A stretch of 64,000 nucleotides of DNA from a virus (taxonomy: Duplodnaviria > Caudoviricetes), in IMG/VR virus record IMGVR_UViG_3300013212_000097, positions 1,888 through 65,887 of that record. One strand, written 5' to 3'. A program made the position numbers and the translations under genes. Within the stretch, counting starts at the first letter, position 1, and every line of letters starts with the position of its first letter. The notes beneath the pieces are model-generated. The model was not told where the DNA came from. It saw nothing but the letters and a program-made list of their open reading frames with translations, and did not search any database. Shown here piece by piece: positions 30,982-43,855 of the stretch.

Positions 30982-31075
30982 TAGGAAATTATTAAGATAT
31001 ATTGTATTATATAATTAGAGCATTGAAGCCCTATTCTTTTTTGAATAGGGTTTTTTTATTTGGGGAGGTGTACTT

Positions 31076-31315
31076 ATGAAACTAAACTTTGAAAAAATTG
31101 GGTTTTATTTATTGTTGGTGTTAATCAGTGGTAGTATTGGATATGCTTTGAAACCCGCAGAGCAAGTTGATCAAAAAGAACTTGAAAGAAAATATCAAAA
31201 TCAACAACAAGTATGCACTGCTGCCATACACATGATGCAAGATTTTTCTAAAAAGAACTATTATCAGTCTAAGACTAAAAAAGAGTGGGCAATTGAAAGA
31301 ATGATGAGTAGATAA
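31076..31315 (+). CDS. Membrane-anchored hypothetical protein
   Basis: N-terminal hydrophobic segment; GGAGG RBS. Confidence 0.65.
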   Translation: MKLNFEKIGFYLLLVLISGSIGYALKPAEQVDQKELERKYQNQQQVCTAAIHMMQDFSKKNYYQSKTKKEWAIERMMSR

Positions 31316-31357
31316 AATAAAATTGACATGCAAGTGTAAGAGCGGTAATATTATTTC

Positions 31358-31585
31358 ATGAAAGAAAATCAATTAAAATTCTTGAGCTTTTTATGTTTAA
31401 TGTTAGGCTTCACTTCTATCATTGCTTCTATTGCAATTTGGTATCTCACTGGTGGCAAAACCCCTGAACTTCAAGCCCACGCAGAAAGATTTGGTATCTT
31501 TGTAGGTCTATGGGCACCTACTTTCATGATCTTATCTAATAGATTTGATCGATATGCAGAAAGTATAAATGAAAAATCAAGCTAA
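31358..31585 (+). CDS. Small two-helix membrane protein
   Basis: HAERFGIFVGLWAPTF. Confidence 0.7.
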   Translation: MKENQLKFLSFLCLMLGFTSIIASIAIWYLTGGKTPELQAHAERFGIFVGLWAPTFMILSNRFDRYAESINEKSS

Positions 31586-31682
31586 ATTAGTAAATTTCAT
31601 ATTTAGTTTTGTAGTTGCATTTGCGATTATCACAATTCTAAAAGTTGCATGTGATTAGAATTATGGTATAATAATTTTGTAG

Positions 31683-31756
31683 CGCGGGATGGAGCAGTTT
31701 GGTAGCTCGGTAGTCTCATAAATTACAGGTCGAGGGTTCGAATCCCTCTCCCGCAC
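31683..31756 (+). tRNA. tRNA-Met(CAT) with initiator-like acceptor stem
   Basis: CGCGGGA/TCCCGCA with C1:A72 mismatch; GTAGT-ctCATaa-ATTAC; GGTTCGAATCC; no encoded CCA. Confidence 0.88.
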
Positions 31757-31761
31757 GATGG

Positions 31762-32042
31762 TCCAACTTAGCTCAGCGGTAGAGCAATCGGCTGTAAACA
31801 GATAGCAGCTTATTAGAGTAATTTAATATAGAAAATTGTCGAAATTCAGTGAAAACTAAGTCGAAAGATATGTCAACACTGAGCCAAGCCTGTAAGGGAA
31901 GGTGCAGAGACTATAATGACGACATCCTACTAGGTAATGCTAAGGATGATGGTATAGTCCAGACTACAAACAGATTATCTGGTAGTGAAAACTATAGTAG
32001 TAAGTAACCGATCGGTCGCTGGTTCGATCCCAGCAGTTGGAG
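31762..32042 (+). tRNA. tRNA-Asn(GTT), intron-containing (exons 31762-31795 and 32005-32042)
   Basis: TCCAACT/AGTTGGA acceptor; spliced arm ATCGG-ctGT|Taa-CCGAT; GGTTCGATCCC. Confidence 0.9.
31796..32004 (+). ncRNA. Group I self-splicing intron, IC3-like, 209 nt, no ORF
   Basis: P1 GGCTGT/GCAGCT with U.G at the splice site; P4 TCAGTG/CACTGA; R GAAGGTGCAGAGACTA; P8 CATCCT/AGGATG; S GGTATAGTCC; terminal G. Confidence 0.92.
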
Positions 32043-32046
32043 TTTT

Positions 32047-32119
32047 GGTCTGTTAGTCGAGTGGTTAAGATGTCTCCCTTTCACGGAGAAGACCAGGGGT
32101 TCGATCCCCCTACAGACTA
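32047..32119 (+). tRNA. tRNA-Glu(TTC)
   Basis: TCTCC-ctTTCac-GGAGA; GGTTCGATCCC; GGTCTGT/ACAGACT. Confidence 0.92.
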
Positions 32120-32197
32120 TAATGACTCTTTTGCTTAATTGCAAAGGAGTTTTTTTATTTAAGTACGTATAATAATAATGGTGTTCAGTTCGAATGA

Positions 32198-32971
32198 ATG
32201 TCATTAGGAGAATTTATGAGAAATTGTTTAAAATGCAACAATAAAATTCCATTTAGTATGGTTATAGATGGAAAAGTAAGAAAATTTGATAAAAGAAAAT
32301 ATTGTTTGGATTGTTCACCTTTCGGATTACATAACACAAGAAGTTTGCAAAATGATGACACAAGAGTTGTTATGAAGATTTGTGAAATTTGTGAAAGAGA
32401 ATATCAAGGTGGACATAGAAAACATAAAGATAAATGTGGTAGATGCTATAGTTTAGCCTATAGGACTAAAACAAAAGAAAGAGCTATTGAATATAAAGGT
32501 GGAGCTTGTTCAGTTTGTGGTTATAAAAAATATATTGGCTCTTTGCATTTTCATCACGTATATCCAGAAACTAAATCATTTAATATCGGTGAAATTAATT
32601 TTAGAAAATTTGACCTTATTGTTGATGAATTAGATAAGTGCATTTTAGTGTGCTCTAACTGCCACGGAGAAATACACGCTGGGCTTGTTGATGCTAAAGA
32701 AATTTTTAATTTTCAACAAGCAACATTTCCAAAATATATTAAAGAAATAAAACCAGAAAAATTCTATCAACCCGTCATAAAAATCTCAAGAAGACCAGAT
32801 AAAGAAATTTTGCAAAAATTAGTCTGGGAAATGTCTTGTGTAAAGATTGGAGAAATGTATGGAGTAAGTGATAATGCTGTCAATAAATGGTGCAAAATCT
32901 ATGGTATTTCTAAACCTGGCAGAGGAGATTGGGAAAAACTTAAGGCTGGAAAAATTGACAAACCTGAATAA
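32198..32971 (+). CDS. Free-standing HNH homing-endonuclease-like protein with Zn ribbons and C-terminal HTH
   Basis: GGACSVCGY...LHFHH...CILVCSNCHGEIH; IGEMYGVSDNAVNKW. Confidence 0.85.
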   Translation: MSLGEFMRNCLKCNNKIPFSMVIDGKVRKFDKRKYCLDCSPFGLHNTRSLQNDDTRVVMKICEICEREYQGGHRKHKDKCGRCYSLAYRTKTKERAIEYKGGACSVCGYKKYIGSLHFHHVYPETKSFNIGEINFRKFDLIVDELDKCILVCSNCHGEIHAGLVDAKEIFNFQQATFPKYIKEIKPEKFYQPVIKISRRPDKEILQKLVWEMSCVKIGEMYGVSDNAVNKWCKIYGISKPGRGDWEKLKAGKIDKPE

Positions 32972-32982
32972 ATGGGTACAAT
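32955..32982 (+). promoter_or_regulatory. Sigma70-like promoter for tRNA-Gln/Thr
   Basis: TTGACA-16-TACAAT. Confidence 0.65.
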
Positions 32983-32998
32983 CTAAATGTAAGAATAT

Positions 32999-33070
32999 TC
33001 CCCTGTAGTGAAACTGGCATCACATCAGTTTTTGGAGCTGAAATTCCTTGATCGTACTGAGGCGGGGGAA
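32999..33070 (+). tRNA. tRNA-Gln(TTG) with atypical T-loop
   Basis: TCCCCTG/CGGGGGA; TCAGT-ttTTGga-GCTGA; T-loop ATCGTAC. Confidence 0.7.
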
Positions 33071-33082
33071 TCTTACTAATTT

Positions 33083-33156
33083 GCCTCTGTAGCTCAAAGG
33101 TATAGCAATGGTTTTGTAAACCATTTTAATTGCAAGTTTGATTCTTGTCGGAGACT
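33083..33156 (+). tRNA. tRNA-Thr(TGT), degenerate or pseudo
   Basis: ATGGT-ttTGTaa-ACCAT; acceptor mismatch; T-loop TTTGATT. Confidence 0.55.
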
Positions 33157-33179
33157 TCCTCTATTTATGGAAAAATACA

Positions 33180-33401
33180 ATGTCACTTAGCGAAGCTTTA
33201 ATTGATTTAAAACAAAATAAGATTATAAGAAGAATTCATTCAAACACTTCTTATAGCTTTGATGTTAATACCAAAAAGTTTGGTATGATGATAAAATACA
33301 ATGTTCACGAAGGTGTGAAGTATGATATCAAATATGCAGAACGAGATACTATTAGTTTTTATGCTGATGATCTTTTGGCTGACGATTGTATAGTAGAATA
33401 A
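33180..33401 (+). CDS. Divergent DUF2829/Tad2-like protein
   Basis: MSLSEALIDLKQNKIIRR...DDLLADDCIVE. Confidence 0.5.
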   Translation: MSLSEALIDLKQNKIIRRIHSNTSYSFDVNTKKFGMMIKYNVHEGVKYDIKYAERDTISFYADDLLADDCIVE

Positions 33402-39210: not shown

Positions 39211-41424
39211 ATGTGGTACAAACTTGCGCAAAATGCAGAAAAAGCTTTTGAAACACTTAAAACAAAAGGTGTGAGCCAAGAAAATATTTCCAAGCTTGAA
39301 GAGATGACAGATCTTGCTTTGAGAGGAAAATATATTGGAGCATTAATGCAAAACCCATTAATGCCTTGGAATCAATTGGAAGAAAAATTCACTACTAAAA
39401 AAACCAATAATCTTTCAGTTCAAGAAATGAGATTACTTGGTGAAATAGATACTTTAGTTACAAATTCTAATCTTCCAGAAGATCAACAAGCTAATTTTTA
39501 TAAATGGGTAGATAGAGTAGCAATTCCTTCCTATAGACCAAATCAATTTGATCCAGAAAAGTATATTTATCCTAAGTTTTCTGGTGCATACAATCCAGTG
39601 TTTGAAATAGAAAGAGAAATTAATCATATTTTTGACTGGTATGTTAATCATATTGATCAAAACCCCAGATTTAATATTTTCTCAATGTCTCTTGATAATG
39701 CATTGCAAGCAAGCGACAGATGGCACGAAGAACTTGCAAATCAAACATCTACAAGAACTTTCTCTAAGATAAAGAAAGAAAATGGACAGATTGTAGATCC
39801 TAATGTAGTAAAAGTTTTTGATAGAGATACTCTTGAAAAAATTGGATTACCTGAAAAATATCAAGGCTGGATGATTGTAAAACTTACTGAAGAAAATGAT
39901 TTTGAGATAGAGGCAGATATTATGGGTCACTGCCTAGCAACAAATAATTACTTTTATCAATATGAAAAAGGCTATATTGAAATCTACTCTTTGCGTGATG
40001 AATCTAATCAACCACATGTAACAATTGAAATTGTTTTGCCAGACAAAGTTAAGCAAATACAAGGCAAAGGTGAAAAAAGACCAAAAGATGATTACTTGAA
40101 ATTAGTTCAACAATGGATATATCAAGGAAATTATTATTCAAATGATAGTAGTCATGATCATGAATTGCATTTTAGAACAGGTTTTGATGAAAACAGTGCA
40201 TTAGAATCTATACAAGAATATTTAAATCCATATTTTGATGAAGAATCAACTGACGATTTAGGTGTCCCTTTAAGACCGATTACTGTAGATGAAGATGAAT
40301 TTGTTGAAGAATTTGATATTGACTATTTGATAGATAAAATAGGACAAAAAAGTGGTGGATATTATAATGATCCAGAATTTTACAAATCATCTGAAGAAAT
40401 TAATTATGATGCATTTGAAGAATTAATTTCTTTTATTGGAGAAATGTTCATTCACCACGATATTAATTACTTAAAAGAATATGCAAAAGAAACTCGTCCA
40501 TTAGGTATTAATCAAAAAGAAATCAAAGCTAAGCTTAAAATCGAAGTTGTTAAGGATCACTTAATGACTTATATTAATGAAGAATTAGAGCAGATTACTT
40601 ACCCACAAAGTAGAAAATTCAGAGAAGAAGATTTAGGTCCTGCAAGATCTTTTAACTTTAAAGATAAAAATCCAGGAGAAATAGACGAAATAGCAATGTC
40701 GTCATATCGTAGAGAACCTAAACGTGGTAGAGCTAAATTTGATGAAGATGGTGAAAGAATACTTAAACAATATAATGGAATCTACGATGTATATTCAGTT
40801 TACTTTGCAGATGAGTTGTATGAGTATATGTTAAAAAATCTTCCATCTGAGTTTTATGGATTAGCTAATAAAATCGGATTGAATTTAGATTTATCACCTG
40901 TTACCCCAAGTTCTGTTGTGGAATTTAACAATGAATACAGAGACTTCTACCAAGGAAGAAATAGACAGTTAGAATTATTTGATTCTAACTCTAATGTATC
41001 TCCCGAAAAATGGATTTATGCCTTTAATCATAAAAAGTTTAGATTAGCAACATTACAAGACGAGGGACTGTCTGATTTTGGCTACAATGATTTATTCAAA
41101 CCTTCTAAAGATATATCTAACAAACAAATATTAGAAAATATCAAAGATTTTTATATTAGCAAGTGCTTGCAAACAATTAAATCTGAAGGACCTGATCCTG
41201 ATTATGTTGGCAATTATTTTGCAGACATAACTGAAGAACTGCATTTAATGTGGGAAGAATATATAGACGACATAAAAAAAGGCGATATTACTTCTTTGAA
41301 GAATGTTATTGAAATTGCTTTAAGCTACGAATCAACACTTTCCAAAGACTCAAATGAATATGAAAAATTGTCTGAAATGATTTCATCAGGCAACATAGCA
41401 GTAGTGATAAAGAGAGATTTATAA
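39211..41424 (+). CDS. MWY-tagged PcfJ-like protein, tandem paralog with C-terminal extension
   Basis: Colinear with 37384..39204; same motifs. Confidence 0.7.
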   Translation: MWYKLAQNAEKAFETLKTKGVSQENISKLEEMTDLALRGKYIGALMQNPLMPWNQLEEKFTTKKTNNLSVQEMRLLGEIDTLVTNSNLPEDQQANFYKWVDRVAIPSYRPNQFDPEKYIYPKFSGAYNPVFEIEREINHIFDWYVNHIDQNPRFNIFSMSLDNALQASDRWHEELANQTSTRTFSKIKKENGQIVDPNVVKVFDRDTLEKIGLPEKYQGWMIVKLTEENDFEIEADIMGHCLATNNYFYQYEKGYIEIYSLRDESNQPHVTIEIVLPDKVKQIQGKGEKRPKDDYLKLVQQWIYQGNYYSNDSSHDHELHFRTGFDENSALESIQEYLNPYFDEESTDDLGVPLRPITVDEDEFVEEFDIDYLIDKIGQKSGGYYNDPEFYKSSEEINYDAFEELISFIGEMFIHHDINYLKEYAKETRPLGINQKEIKAKLKIEVVKDHLMTYINEELEQITYPQSRKFREEDLGPARSFNFKDKNPGEIDEIAMSSYRREPKRGRAKFDEDGERILKQYNGIYDVYSVYFADELYEYMLKNLPSEFYGLANKIGLNLDLSPVTPSSVVEFNNEYRDFYQGRNRQLELFDSNSNVSPEKWIYAFNHKKFRLATLQDEGLSDFGYNDLFKPSKDISNKQILENIKDFYISKCLQTIKSEGPDPDYVGNYFADITEELHLMWEEYIDDIKKGDITSLKNVIEIALSYESTLSKDSNEYEKLSEMISSGNIAVVIKRDL

Positions 41425-42224
41425 TGTGGTACAAATTAGCTATCACTAAAGTTGATCCTTCTGGTCAAATCAACATGGATTTCTCTGGTAAAAACAACTA
41501 CCCAGTAAACCCTGGAGAAAAACCAAAGCCTTTTGATTTGAATAATCTTAAGTTTGAGGTTGTTCAGGAAGATCCAATTGAATATCCAGAAGAATATACT
41601 TTGTATGCCTTGTTAAATGATGGAAGAAAATTAGGTTACATTTATTTTGAAGCTCCTGATAATTCTGATACAGCTGACATAAAATACACATCAATTTACG
41701 AATATCCTACATCTTTAGGCAAAGAAAAATGGGAAAAGCCTGTAAATCCAGAAGATAAAACTAAATCTCAATTTGTTGAAGAATTAAAAAATGCTGGTTA
41801 CTTAGTTGATGATTCTTCAGTTACTAGAACTGATTGGGGTATTGGGAAAACATTGTATCAAGAATTGAAAAAATTTCTTCAGGAAAACAAACCAAACATA
41901 AAATTTGTCACTGGAAAAGTTCATTCCAAAGAAGCATTTTGGGCAAGATATAAAGGACTTGGTTTTCCAGTAGAAGCTTTAGATCCCTATCAATCTTATA
42001 ATAAAGAAATTAATGAAAAACATTCTTATTTGTCTGAAGAAGAAAAACTTAAGATGATCAGAAATATGGCTAATGAATTAGGAAGTTCTTCATTTGATTC
42101 AAGTGGACGTTCAGATGCGCCAAAATGGGAATTTAATGTTAAGAATAAGATTGAAAATTTACCATCTGAAAAAGAAATAAATATTGATTCCGAAAATCTT
42201 TCTTTATTCGACGAGGCAAAGTAA
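41424..42224 (+). CDS. MWY-tagged protein, possible GNAT-like fold
   Basis: LGYIYF...ADIKY...RTDWGIGKTLYQEL resembles acetyl-CoA motif A. Confidence 0.45.
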   Translation: MWYKLAITKVDPSGQINMDFSGKNNYPVNPGEKPKPFDLNNLKFEVVQEDPIEYPEEYTLYALLNDGRKLGYIYFEAPDNSDTADIKYTSIYEYPTSLGKEKWEKPVNPEDKTKSQFVEELKNAGYLVDDSSVTRTDWGIGKTLYQELKKFLQENKPNIKFVTGKVHSKEAFWARYKGLGFPVEALDPYQSYNKEINEKHSYLSEEEKLKMIRNMANELGSSSFDSSGRSDAPKWEFNVKNKIENLPSEKEINIDSENLSLFDEAK

Positions 42225-43855
42225 TGTGGTACAGATTTGCAGGTTTACAAGACGAAGTAGAAAAGTTACGCATTCAAGGCATAAATGAACTTATTTTAGC
42301 CTTATTTTCGGATCCAAAATATGATAATGCGTCTAAAGGTAAAATGCTAGGTGCTATCAAGCAAAATCCAAATATTTCAATAGAAGAATTAAGAAATCTT
42401 TCTATGCAAAACAAACCAACAAAAGGAGAGCAATTTATTTTAGCTCGTTTTGAAAATGAAAGATTCAAAAACTGGTTTTTTCATAAATTGAAAAGTTGGA
42501 GAATTCAACCTGCAAAACCTGATGGAGAATATGATCACAACACTCCAAAAGAAAACCTTGGAGAACATGCAAATTTTACAGAACTAGCTATCCACATGCA
42601 AGATTTTGTAAATAATATTGAAATTAATGATCCCGATTATAATTTAGGTTTAAGATCTTGGGAGGAAGTAGTTCAAGATACAGATCAATGGGAATCAATG
42701 TTGCAAGGTAGAGGCTCAAGTAAATTTTATAATCCAGCTGACAGAAATGAAATAATGAAATACCCAGATGGCTGGAGTATGGTAGAAGTGATTTCTGAAA
42801 ATGATTTAGACGTAGAAGGCGCAAAAATGCACCACTGTGTTGCTGGGTATTGGGAACAAGTAAGAAAAGGCAACACTAATATTTATTCCTTGAGAGACCC
42901 TGGAAATCAACCACATGTAACAATAGAAGTGGTTGGTGATAAAGTAAAACAAGTCAAAGGGCATAATAATAAAAAAATTACAGAAGATGATTTAGTAGAA
43001 AAAATTAAAGAGTTCTTTGAAAGCCAGGATGATATTGAAAAAGATATCAGACATAATCCAATAGAGGGTCATTTTGAAAATTGGGAAGATGGAATATATT
43101 GGACTTATGACCCAACTGAAATAGATTACAATATTCACAGATCTACATATGGTCCAGAAGAATATGAATTTGATGATCTCGATGATGATGGTCCTGAAGA
43201 TTTTAACATATTTGGTATCAATTCACCAGTATTTTCATATAAAAAATTCAGTGAAGGAAATTTATATCAGGCTAGTATGACAGATATTACAACTAATGTT
43301 GTAGATTCGATTAACAATGGTTTAAGTAAAAACAGAAGCGCATATAATTATGGGGATAGAAAAGAATATACTATCGAAGATTATGATTTAGACGATTACT
43401 CTGATAAAATATACGAAGGATTAGTGGCTAAAGCTAATTTAGCCTTAACACAACGTCCAATGGCTCATGATTTTGGAAAATATTTGGATGCTAGACATTT
43501 TCTTGAAGTGTCTACAAAAGAATATGAAAGCATGAAAGAAAAATATCAAGAAGATTCACCTGCTGAAGATTTTGCAACATGGTATCAAAATCAACCTGAA
43601 TTTTTGTGGTTCATTATTGCAGAAAAAATTCAAGAATGGTTTGAAAAGAGTGATTTTGCATTTAAATTCAAAGACATAAGAGGCGAAGAGTTTAAATTGC
43701 CTTCTGGATATAAAAAATGGTGGTATGGCGGAGAAGAATCGGAAAATATCACTCCTTTCATCAATACTAAGGAAATTAGAGAAACAGTGTTAAAAGATGA
43801 TGAAAAATTTGCATCATACAATAATAATAATTACAGAAAAAATTGGGTAAAGTGA
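42224..43855 (+). CDS. MWY-tagged PcfJ-like domain protein
   Basis: EGAKMHHCV...IYSLRD..NQPHVTIEV...QVKG..N. Confidence 0.7.
   Translation: MWYRFAGLQDEVEKLRIQGINELILALFSDPKYDNASKGKMLGAIKQNPNISIEELRNLSMQNKPTKGEQFILARFENERFKNWFFHKLKSWRIQPAKPDGEYDHNTPKENLGEHANFTELAIHMQDFVNNIEINDPDYNLGLRSWEEVVQDTDQWESMLQGRGSSKFYNPADRNEIMKYPDGWSMVEVISENDLDVEGAKMHHCVAGYWEQVRKGNTNIYSLRDPGNQPHVTIEVVGDKVKQVKGHNNKKITEDDLVEKIKEFFESQDDIEKDIRHNPIEGHFENWEDGIYWTYDPTEIDYNIHRSTYGPEEYEFDDLDDDGPEDFNIFGINSPVFSYKKFSEGNLYQASMTDITTNVVDSINNGLSKNRSAYNYGDRKEYTIEDYDLDDYSDKIYEGLVAKANLALTQRPMAHDFGKYLDARHFLEVSTKEYESMKEKYQEDSPAEDFATWYQNQPEFLWFIIAEKIQEWFEKSDFAFKFKDIRGEEFKLPSGYKKWWYGGEESENITPFINTKEIRETVLKDDEKFASYNNNNYRKNWVK

Follow-up and report, generated by a model that had tools for sequence, protein, structure and literature searches.

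A tRNA-Asn gene split within the anticodon by a compact group I intron in a putative freshwater jumbo phage

The stretch of DNA analysed here (the window) is 64,000 nucleotides long and covers nearly all of the 65,887-bp IMG/VR virus record IMGVR_UViG_3300013212_000097, which is 18% complete according to CheckV. The question raised by this locus is whether the interval 31762-32042 is a tRNA-Asn gene that is interrupted by a working group I intron, and, if so, where such an intron belongs and how it came to reside in the tRNA gene of a phage. The split tRNA-Asn gene is real and far beyond what is expected by chance, since the Rfam model RF00028 (Intron_gpI) matches positions 31786-31981 with 77.9 bits (gathering threshold 50 bits) and an E-value of 3.4e-20 in a search of 501 bases (31650-32150), and a match at the same intron was recovered in a search of the whole record. 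We consider it very probable that the locus is part of the tRNA operon of a jumbo phage (about 360 kb) from freshwater, and that its tRNA-Asn(GUU) is split between U35 and U36 by a 209-nt spliceable group I intron without an open reading frame (ORF), which is optional and belongs to a lineage of bacterial type. Nothing in the mechanism is out of the ordinary, and many uncultivated bacteria have introns of this type. The points of interest are rather the setting in a phage tRNA gene, a blind spot in annotation, and a possible partnership between the intron and an endonuclease.

With introns allowed (ARAGORN -i), ARAGORN placed the tRNA-Asn(GTT) gene at 31762-32042 on the plus strand, with 72 exon bases and an intron of 209 nt. 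The junction is given in its output as "gctgt-Intron-taacc" and splits the anticodon between canonical positions 35 and 36 (U35/U36), so that the intron occupies 31796-32004. The 5' exon (31762-31795, plus strand) corresponds to positions 1-35 and ends in GGCTGT, with U35 as the -1 base, while the 3' exon (32005-32042, plus strand), which was also delimited by alignment with intronless alleles, corresponds to positions 36-73 and begins with UAACC. Removal of the intron yields a 72-nt cloverleaf with all four arms and the anticodon gtt. In E. coli, the identity elements for asparaginyl-tRNA synthetase are the anticodon bases G34, U35 and U36 and the discriminator base G73. These elements are present in the joined anticodon GUU and in G32042, the discriminator base 3' of the acceptor stem; the CCA end is not encoded. 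An earlier note, made from the sequence of the window, had proposed a tRNA-Asn(GTT) split at 35/36 by a compact group I intron whose removal (31796-32004) restores the cloverleaf. The ARAGORN -i borders agree with both statements, and the search with a group I intron model that it had suggested gave the above score of 77.9 bits against a gathering score of 50.

The intron (31796-32004, plus strand) ends with the omega-G, G32004, and is preceded by U31795 as the last base of the 5' exon. The sole frame inside the intron (31849-32007, 52 amino acids, GTG start) had no Pfam match and extends beyond the intron end, and we therefore regard the intron as lacking a credible ORF. All of its helices are read on the plus strand. 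P1 is formed by the exon bases GGCUGU (31790-31795) and the internal guide sequence (IGS) GCAGCU (31805-31810), which enclose a 9-nt loop and place the U31795.G31805 wobble at the splice site. P2 (31811-31817/31822-31828) consists of seven base pairs closed by a GUAA tetraloop of the GNRA type. The register of P3 (31836-31841/31917-31922) is set by covariation between two clades of viral copies, from U-A to C-G and from G.U to C-G. P4 (31846-31851/31877-31882) encloses P5/P5a, which has a GAAA loop, and is followed by P6/P6a (31883-31903), in which the inner pairs are weakly supported (66.7% paired). P7 is formed by GACUA (31909-31913) and UAGUC (31955-31959) as a pseudoknot that contains the guanosine-binding site. 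P8 (31923-31948) combines the CAUCCU/AGGAUG stem with the inner UAG/CUA pairs. The three-way P9 element (31963-32001) is composed of P9 (31963-31967/31997-32001) and the arms P9a (31971-31974/31978-31981) and P9b (31982-31986/31991-31995), the latter with a GAAA loop, and is followed by AAG and the 3' splice site. The coordinates given in the earlier note, including those of the IGS, were all retained, as were P1 with its U.G pair, P4, P7, P8 and the terminal G, which it had recognised.

From this fold, splicing would be expected to follow the usual course. The 5' exon of the precursor would pair through its six terminal bases, GGCUGU, with the guide GCAGCU to form P1, so that the wobble at U35 marks the 5' splice site, and an external guanosine bound in P7 would attack there. 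The terminal G32004 would then occupy the same site in P7, and the freed 3'-OH of U35 would attack the 3' splice site. The predicted product, CUGU/UAAC, is a normal anticodon loop, and the intron would be released and could circularise.

To what extent is this structure conserved in other viruses? We scanned IMG/VR with a pattern built from the tRNA-Asn exon ends, the P7 motif (anchor AGACTA) and the terminal G, and identified ten other contigs with the split tRNA-Asn pattern. In nine of these, ARAGORN -i recognised a complete tRNA-Asn(gtt) gene that is interrupted at this site by an intron of 206-211 nt, while the locus in the tenth is cut. A split tRNA-Asn was found in seven more viral contigs through a search with a second type of HNH endonuclease gene, described below, and the total in IMG/VR is thus 17 contigs besides the record of the window. 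The contigs L105-L107, which were found through the HNH gene and not through the pattern, have a 210-nt intron at the same site (ARAGORN -i).

The fold of the intron is conserved across the viral copies. In a 10-row viral alignment, which separates into two clades, RNAalifold predicted 75 pairs, 24 of which show compensatory changes. The full model, which includes the P7 pseudoknot, contains 82 pairs, and 95.6% of the cells in the ten copies are paired, compared with 28-43% when the partners are slid. Changes on both sides are found in 26 of the 82 pairs, and the covariation score was reached by none of 500 shuffles. Such changes occur in P3, P4, P5 and P8, including two of the six pairs in P4, which is 100% paired, and four of the nine pairs in P8; they are also seen in four of the seven pairs in P2 and in one pair each in P9 and P9a. 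The U.G pair of P1 is retained in all ten aligned copies, with the exon side fixed by the search pattern. P7 is likewise invariant in all ten, but its 5' strand lies inside the AGACTA anchor fixed by the pattern, and its invariance is therefore uninformative either way.

The distribution of the intron among close relatives shows that it is not a fixed part of the gene. An intact tRNA-Asn is located at the syntenic locus in 14 contigs (L088-L098, L110, L113 and L115), and alignment with four intronless tRNA-Asn genes from Asn-Glu clusters gave one clean gap of 209/210 nt exactly at CTGT/TAAC. The same exon allele is present with the intron in one contig (L009) and without it in another (L093). 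The 34-nt 5' exon of the window is identical in four other IMG/VR contigs, all four of which have the intron, and no intronless copy of this exon allele was found among the IMG/VR 34-mer matches; intronless alleles were found for diverged exons and for the L009-type exon only. Because its syntenic relatives lack it, the intron is an optional insertion, and it probably spreads horizontally. With one tRNA allele both with and without the intron, syntenic clusters, and two HNH paralogues, these phages offer a natural system for the study of intron gain and loss.

A looser pattern scan of 185,579 species genomes identified 67 loci with a split tRNA-Asn, in genomes with bacterial or archaeal labels. 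All 67 have the arrangement CTGT, an intron of 183-230 nt with a final G, and TAAYC, and the guide GCAG is located within the first 30 nt of the intron in 65 of them. A hidden Markov model (HMM) of 11 viral introns recovered 65 of the 67 genome introns at E<1e-3, compared with none of the 67 shuffled controls. The genomes are labelled as Patescibacteria/Candidate Phyla Radiation (18), Betaproteobacteria/Burkholderiales (15), Omnitrophota (9), Limnocylindria (4), cyanobacteria-related (3), Streptomycetaceae (3) and archaeon (2), while six belong to other phyla and seven are unclassified. In a FastTree phylogeny of 78 introns with an arbitrary root, the 11 viral introns were monophyletic (Shimodaira-Hasegawa (SH)-like support 0.991) and adjoined a copy from Nealsonbacteria (0.599) and a group from Burkholderiales. 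The G+C fraction of the introns in the viral clade of the window is 0.33-0.37, which is lower than in the bacterial copies. Judged by sequence homology, the intron belongs to a tRNA-Asn-specific lineage that is common to many uncultivated bacteria, in which the phage copies form a clade of their own.

The introns that scored best against the HMM of the phage introns, with E-values of about 1e-23, come from two metagenome-assembled genomes (MAGs) labelled archaeon or Woesearchaeota (L049 and L076). These copies may represent mis-binned contigs, viral contigs, or true archaeal copies.

The earlier note had cautioned that the novelty might be limited to the phage context, and the presence of split tRNA-Asn genes in 67 species genomes and 17 other viral contigs agrees with this. 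It had also mentioned reports of Asn 35/36 introns in Patescibacteria. Their occurrence there holds for the 18 genomes so labelled; in the full-text literature, with subscription journals and supplements outside reach, no paper was found that names Asn 35/36 introns or tRNA-Asn as a host gene.

Genes of this type are easily overlooked, as the earlier note had anticipated. On the 64-kb window, default ARAGORN identified tRNAs for Met, Glu, Gln, Thr and Arg, whereas Asn was absent and the interval between Met and Glu was left empty. A filtered cmscan of the whole window at the gathering threshold listed four tRNAs and no intron. Default ARAGORN also found the Asn gene in none of the ten other contigs from the IMG/VR pattern scan. 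When introns were allowed, ARAGORN -i named 16 of the 67 genome loci as Asn, assigned 49 to other isotypes (Asp, Thr, Tyr, Arg, Ala or "Stop") and missed two; the misnaming is explained by its placement of the intron elsewhere in the loop. The 67 split tRNA-Asn genes are probably mis-annotated or absent in public annotations. A passage in the description of tRNAscan-SE 2.0 indicates that it is not designed for the detection of such tRNA introns (PMC8450103). Because default ARAGORN, the filtered Rfam search and the isotype calls of ARAGORN -i miss or misname the split genes, tRNA inventories of phages and MAGs, and reports of a missing tRNA-Asn in small genomes, can be wrong.

If the intron spreads, what could move it? 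The window contains a free-standing HNH endonuclease gene of 257 amino acids (32198-32971, plus strand; PHROG phrog_2255, 3e-38), which is located between tRNA-Glu and tRNA-Gln. The protein had no Pfam match at E<0.01, while inspection by eye revealed CxxC pairs, an HFHH...N...CH..IH motif and a helix-turn-helix-like tail. This Glu/Gln-type HNH has close relatives (81-92% identity) in 13 contigs. In 11 of these (L088-L098), the tRNA-Asn is uninterrupted and the gene order is Asn-Glu-HNH-Gln-Thr, and in the other two (L011 and L009) it is split. The HNH gene of the window may play a part in mobility, but it is not tied to the presence of the intron.

Between tRNA-Asn and tRNA-Glu there is, in other contigs, a second paralogue of the HNH gene, with about 52% identity to that of the window (L100-L112; for example L015 at 2135-2884 on the minus strand). 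For 13 close relatives of this Asn/Glu-type HNH (75-100% identity), 11 have the split gene upstream, one has an intact gene and one locus is cut, and the split tRNA-Asn is located about 115-140 nt upstream of the HNH gene. One contig (L009) carries both paralogues. The window lacks the Asn/Glu type, and its tRNA-Asn and tRNA-Glu are separated by only 3 nt. A tblastn search showed that HNH homologues are close to the split tRNA-Asn in seven of the ten pattern-scan contigs, with none in L014 and L017, while L012 is cut. In the bacterial loci, which extend up to 8 kb, HNH homologues adjoin the split gene in seven of 67 cases, always at a distance of 22-393 nt. The association suggests that the intron and the Asn/Glu-type HNH may form a two-part mobile cassette.

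One explanation of this association is a selfish cassette that spreads by collaborative homing. The HNH enzyme beside tRNA-Asn would cut intronless competitors, the intron would split the recognition site and thereby confer immunity, and both would be copied in, with splicing as the price of harmlessness. This would add to, and not replace, the explanation of the locus as an optional group I intron, and we regard it as possible but rather doubtful. The co-occurrence of the Asn/Glu HNH type with the intron in 11 of 12 assessable loci is in its favour, as are the HNH homologues near the split gene in the viral and bacterial loci. However, the window itself lacks this HNH type, the Glu/Gln type is found mostly with intact genes, and no cleavage site is known. 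The associated contigs are moreover close kin, and the counts therefore do not represent independent events. Homing endonucleases are also common in phage tRNA clusters in general; an example is SegB of T4 (PMC2330249).

In its widest form, the idea is that the intron and an adjacent HNH that targets intact tRNA-Asn make up a two-part element that moves among freshwater jumbo phages and between phages and bacteria of several phyla. The window would then represent a stage at which the intron persists in the absence of its Asn/Glu partner, with an unrelated-acting paralogue one gene further on. We put this forward tentatively. If it were true, the targets of homing in phages would include tRNA genes in addition to conserved protein genes, and phages would carry tRNA introns from one bacterial phylum to another. 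The same phage clusters are suited to the study of a possible cooperation between intron and endonuclease.

A different explanation is that the intron is a decayed remnant that no longer splices, and that the split tRNA-Asn is a tolerated pseudogene in a phage that relies on tRNA-Asn supplied by the host. Many phages can dispense with their tRNA genes, relatives of this phage thrive with an intronless gene, P10 is weak in the window copy, and the RNA data described below gave no direct evidence of splicing for it, all of which would be compatible with such a loss. Against this, the core of the intron scores 28 bits above the Rfam cut-off, the exons retain a perfect cloverleaf, and the pairing in P2, P3, P4, P5, P8 and P9 has been kept through compensatory changes across two viral clades.

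RNA data bear on the same issue. Four RNA-labelled runs were compared with positions 31000-33200 of the window as assembled contigs. A riverine metatranscriptome (X20) yielded a 239-nt contig at a depth of 26 that consists of 31931-32005, seven other letters, and 31805-31960. The two ends of this contig carry the same 30 bases, as expected from a circular molecule in a 31-mer assembly, 31 being the k that we take to underlie the Logan contigs, from which a circle size of about 209 nt follows. The contig matches the window at 95-99% and is therefore derived from a variant intron. It implies that a circular RNA of about 209 nt, made from a close variant of the intron, exists in nature; such a near-identical variant would need an active ribozyme to circularise. 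Group I ribozymes are known to give rise to circles, as described in a 2026 paper on the Azoarcus pre-tRNA intron. The run X18 contained a 169-nt contig that covers 31805-31973, and X19 contained a 219-nt contig across both exon-intron borders, which represents either the precursor or DNA. Differences in depth between the intron and its neighbours are contig-based and unable to rank expression, and were not used; likewise, no meaning is attached to segments of the 2.2-kb region that the RNA runs leave uncovered.

Several observations weigh against the conclusion that the intron is active. The X20 circle is a single contig of variant sequence, and may be full length or one or two bases short. 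A joint of 31795 to 32005 that skips the 209 nt was seen in X18 and X15, but was rejected as evidence of splicing in the phage; the acceptor stems differ from that of the phage gene, and the joint therefore comes from the tRNA-Asn of other organisms. Ligated exons of the phage's own tRNA-Asn were found in no read set among the four RNA-labelled runs. In the aligned copies, the search pattern had fixed the ends of the exons, AGACTA in P7 and the final G, so that the invariance of these columns is not independent evidence. The fold model, moreover, has an advantage over the slid controls, as it was derived from the sequence of the window. P10 is weak in the window copy, with two contiguous pairs by reading (U32005-A31804 and A32006-U31803), compared with four pairs in the other viral clade. 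P1 makes use of G30 and G31, which also belong to the anticodon stem. Finally, the assignment to the IC3 type is by resemblance only. The IC3 subgroup is defined by the absence of a P5abc extension, by a P2 and a P9 that are short and closed by GNRA loops, and by the sequence class of P7. The intron in the window has GUAA in L2, GAAA in L5a and L9b, a small size and no long extensions, which would fit this architecture.

Taken together, we consider loss of splicing very unlikely. The intron in the phage tRNA-Asn gene is genuine and very probably active, and we infer that this very precursor is self-splicing.

We take the carrier for a jumbo phage from freshwater with a genome of about 360 kb. 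The assignment to a phage is based on the IMG/VR virus class, on a syntenic viral contig of 300,536 bp that is 84% complete according to CheckV, and on a phage-like gene content. The syntenic contig has the same tRNA cluster and an HNH gene that is 86% identical to that of the window. Among the PHROG matches in the window, which has a G+C content of about 31%, are the HNH endonuclease, an exonuclease, a nuclease of the SbcD type, a DNA methyltransferase and, weakly, a "major tail protein". It is barely credible that the split gene is an assembly chimera or comes from a bacterial fragment misclassified as viral. The record is a metagenome fragment of low completeness, and capsid and terminase genes were detected in the window neither by PHROG matches nor, as virion or terminase domains, by Pfam on ten large ORFs, but the same gene structure is present in 17 other IMG/VR contigs, the tRNA cluster is syntenic on the 84% complete contig, a terminase match of 31.7 bits is present on a further contig with the intron, the window has phage-like genes, and 20 metagenome runs from lakes, freshwater and estuaries (nine studies) contain at least part of a 2.2-kb stretch, although only two of the 20 contain half or more of its sampled words and the runs with a small share are uninformative on habitat. 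No close relative of the window was found among 50,697 deposited phage records. Two neighbouring large ORFs (39211-41424 and 42224-43855, plus strand) contain a PcfJ-like domain (PF14284; 29.4 and 47 bits), while most other large ORFs in the window matched no Pfam or PHROG family.

The split gene is part of a short unit of three tRNA genes. The unit is headed by tRNA-Met(CAT) (31682-31757, plus strand; ARAGORN, Rfam tRNA 57.3 bits), and tRNA-Glu(TTC) (32046-32120, plus strand; ARAGORN, Rfam 65.5 bits) begins immediately after the short spacer 3' of tRNA-Asn. An extended -10 promoter-like motif, TGnTATAAT (31664-31672, plus strand), was read from the sequence 9 nt 5' of tRNA-Met. It was not flagged by a consensus promoter scan because the -35 hexamer matches at only three of six positions. 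A GGTATAAT motif is present at the corresponding place 5' of tRNA-Asn in the relatives, and the motif in the window may serve as a promoter. At the other end, a terminator scan identified an intrinsic-terminator-like hairpin followed by a T-run (32124-32151, plus strand), with one found compared with 0.4 expected in shuffles. The promoter-like motif and the terminator-like hairpin thus frame the Met-Asn-Glu unit. Further downstream, a tRNA-Gln(ttg) at 32998-33072 was called by ARAGORN and is absent from the whole-window Rfam list at the gathering threshold.

Pieces of the intron also match deposited phage genomes, several of which contain split tRNA genes of their own. According to ARAGORN -i, LR756501 and the Agrobacterium phage Atu_ph07 contain a split tRNA-Leu(taa), and the Microcoleus phage My-WqHQDG contains a split tRNA-Arg(cct), which is represented in GenBank by a 286-nt tRNA-Arg. 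The RF00028 scores of these three (56.6, 48.9 and 37 bits, respectively) come from the whole-record search, and a joint scan of seven phage loci listed none of them, its output being limited to the Pelagibacter phage intron (48.6 bits) and one tRNA. In LR756508, a split tRNA-Lys(ttt) and a split tRNA-Arg(tct) were placed side by side by ARAGORN -i only, and the RF00028 search gave no support for them. The three split tRNAs with RF00028 matches are of the classical isotypes Leu and Arg, and none is Asn. A second, stronger RF00028 match (96.1 bits) is located at 718159-718390 on the minus strand of LR756501.1, a phage of 735 kb.

Some of the matches are located in or beside protein genes. The capsid gene of the Pelagibacter phage HTVC120P is annotated as two coding sequences with an RF00028 match at 452-634 between them (48.6 bits, just below the cut-off). 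The helicase genes of crAss-like phages (L003 and L007) have a GIY-YIG endonuclease ORF and, just upstream, a stretch that is similar to the 3' part of the intron. These are likely to be protein-gene introns. In addition, a 43-nt segment of the intron (31843-31885, P4-P5) recurs with 93% identity in 14 records of Vibrio phages, at a site annotated as a hypothetical protein, and Intron_gpI is annotated at the corresponding place in related Vibrio phages.

How does the intron compare with known systems? According to a passage in a 2014 review, all phage introns known at that time were located in protein genes (PMC3984707). The at least 18 viral contigs with a split tRNA-Asn and the three deposited phages with a split tRNA-Leu or tRNA-Arg correct this generalisation as worded there. 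In the full-text literature, with subscription journals and supplements again outside reach, we found no paper that describes a phage tRNA gene interrupted by a group I intron. The group I introns in phage protein genes, such as those of the T4 td/nrdB type and those in crAss-like phages, are also self-splicing and often linked to homing endonucleases, and pieces of the window intron match those in the crAss-like helicase and Pelagibacter phage capsid genes. In contrast to them, the intron in the window interrupts a tRNA.

With regard to mobility, a parallel is offered by the cyanophage psbA intron. In this case of collaborative homing, an intron without an ORF is paired with the free-standing endonuclease F-CphI. 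The likeness consists of an ORF-less intron and an endonuclease gene beside the interrupted gene, an arrangement that recurs in phages and bacteria. The comparison concerns adjacency alone, and the HNH type present in the window is uncorrelated with the intron.

The bacterial split tRNA-Asn(GUU) genes resemble the phage gene in that they have the same CTGT/G-TAAYC junction, the guide GCAG and introns that are homologous by the HMM. The phage copies differ from them in forming their own clade (SH 0.991), in their lower G+C content and in their location inside phage tRNA clusters. For tRNA introns of bacteria more broadly, the preprint by Williams (2020) raised the number of settings from four to 21, in a text that mentions neither Asn nor phages. 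It describes the four classical settings under the label IC3, with classical sites located after loop bases 2, 3 or 5. The classical bacterial tRNA group I introns are similar to the intron in the window in that they are about 200 nt long, lack an ORF, interrupt the anticodon loop, have a U at -1 in the U.G pair of P1 and a terminal G, have exons that are held by the tRNA body, and belong to the same Rfam family. The intron in the window differs from them in the isotype, which is Asn, in its site after loop base 4 (35/36), and in being carried by a phage.

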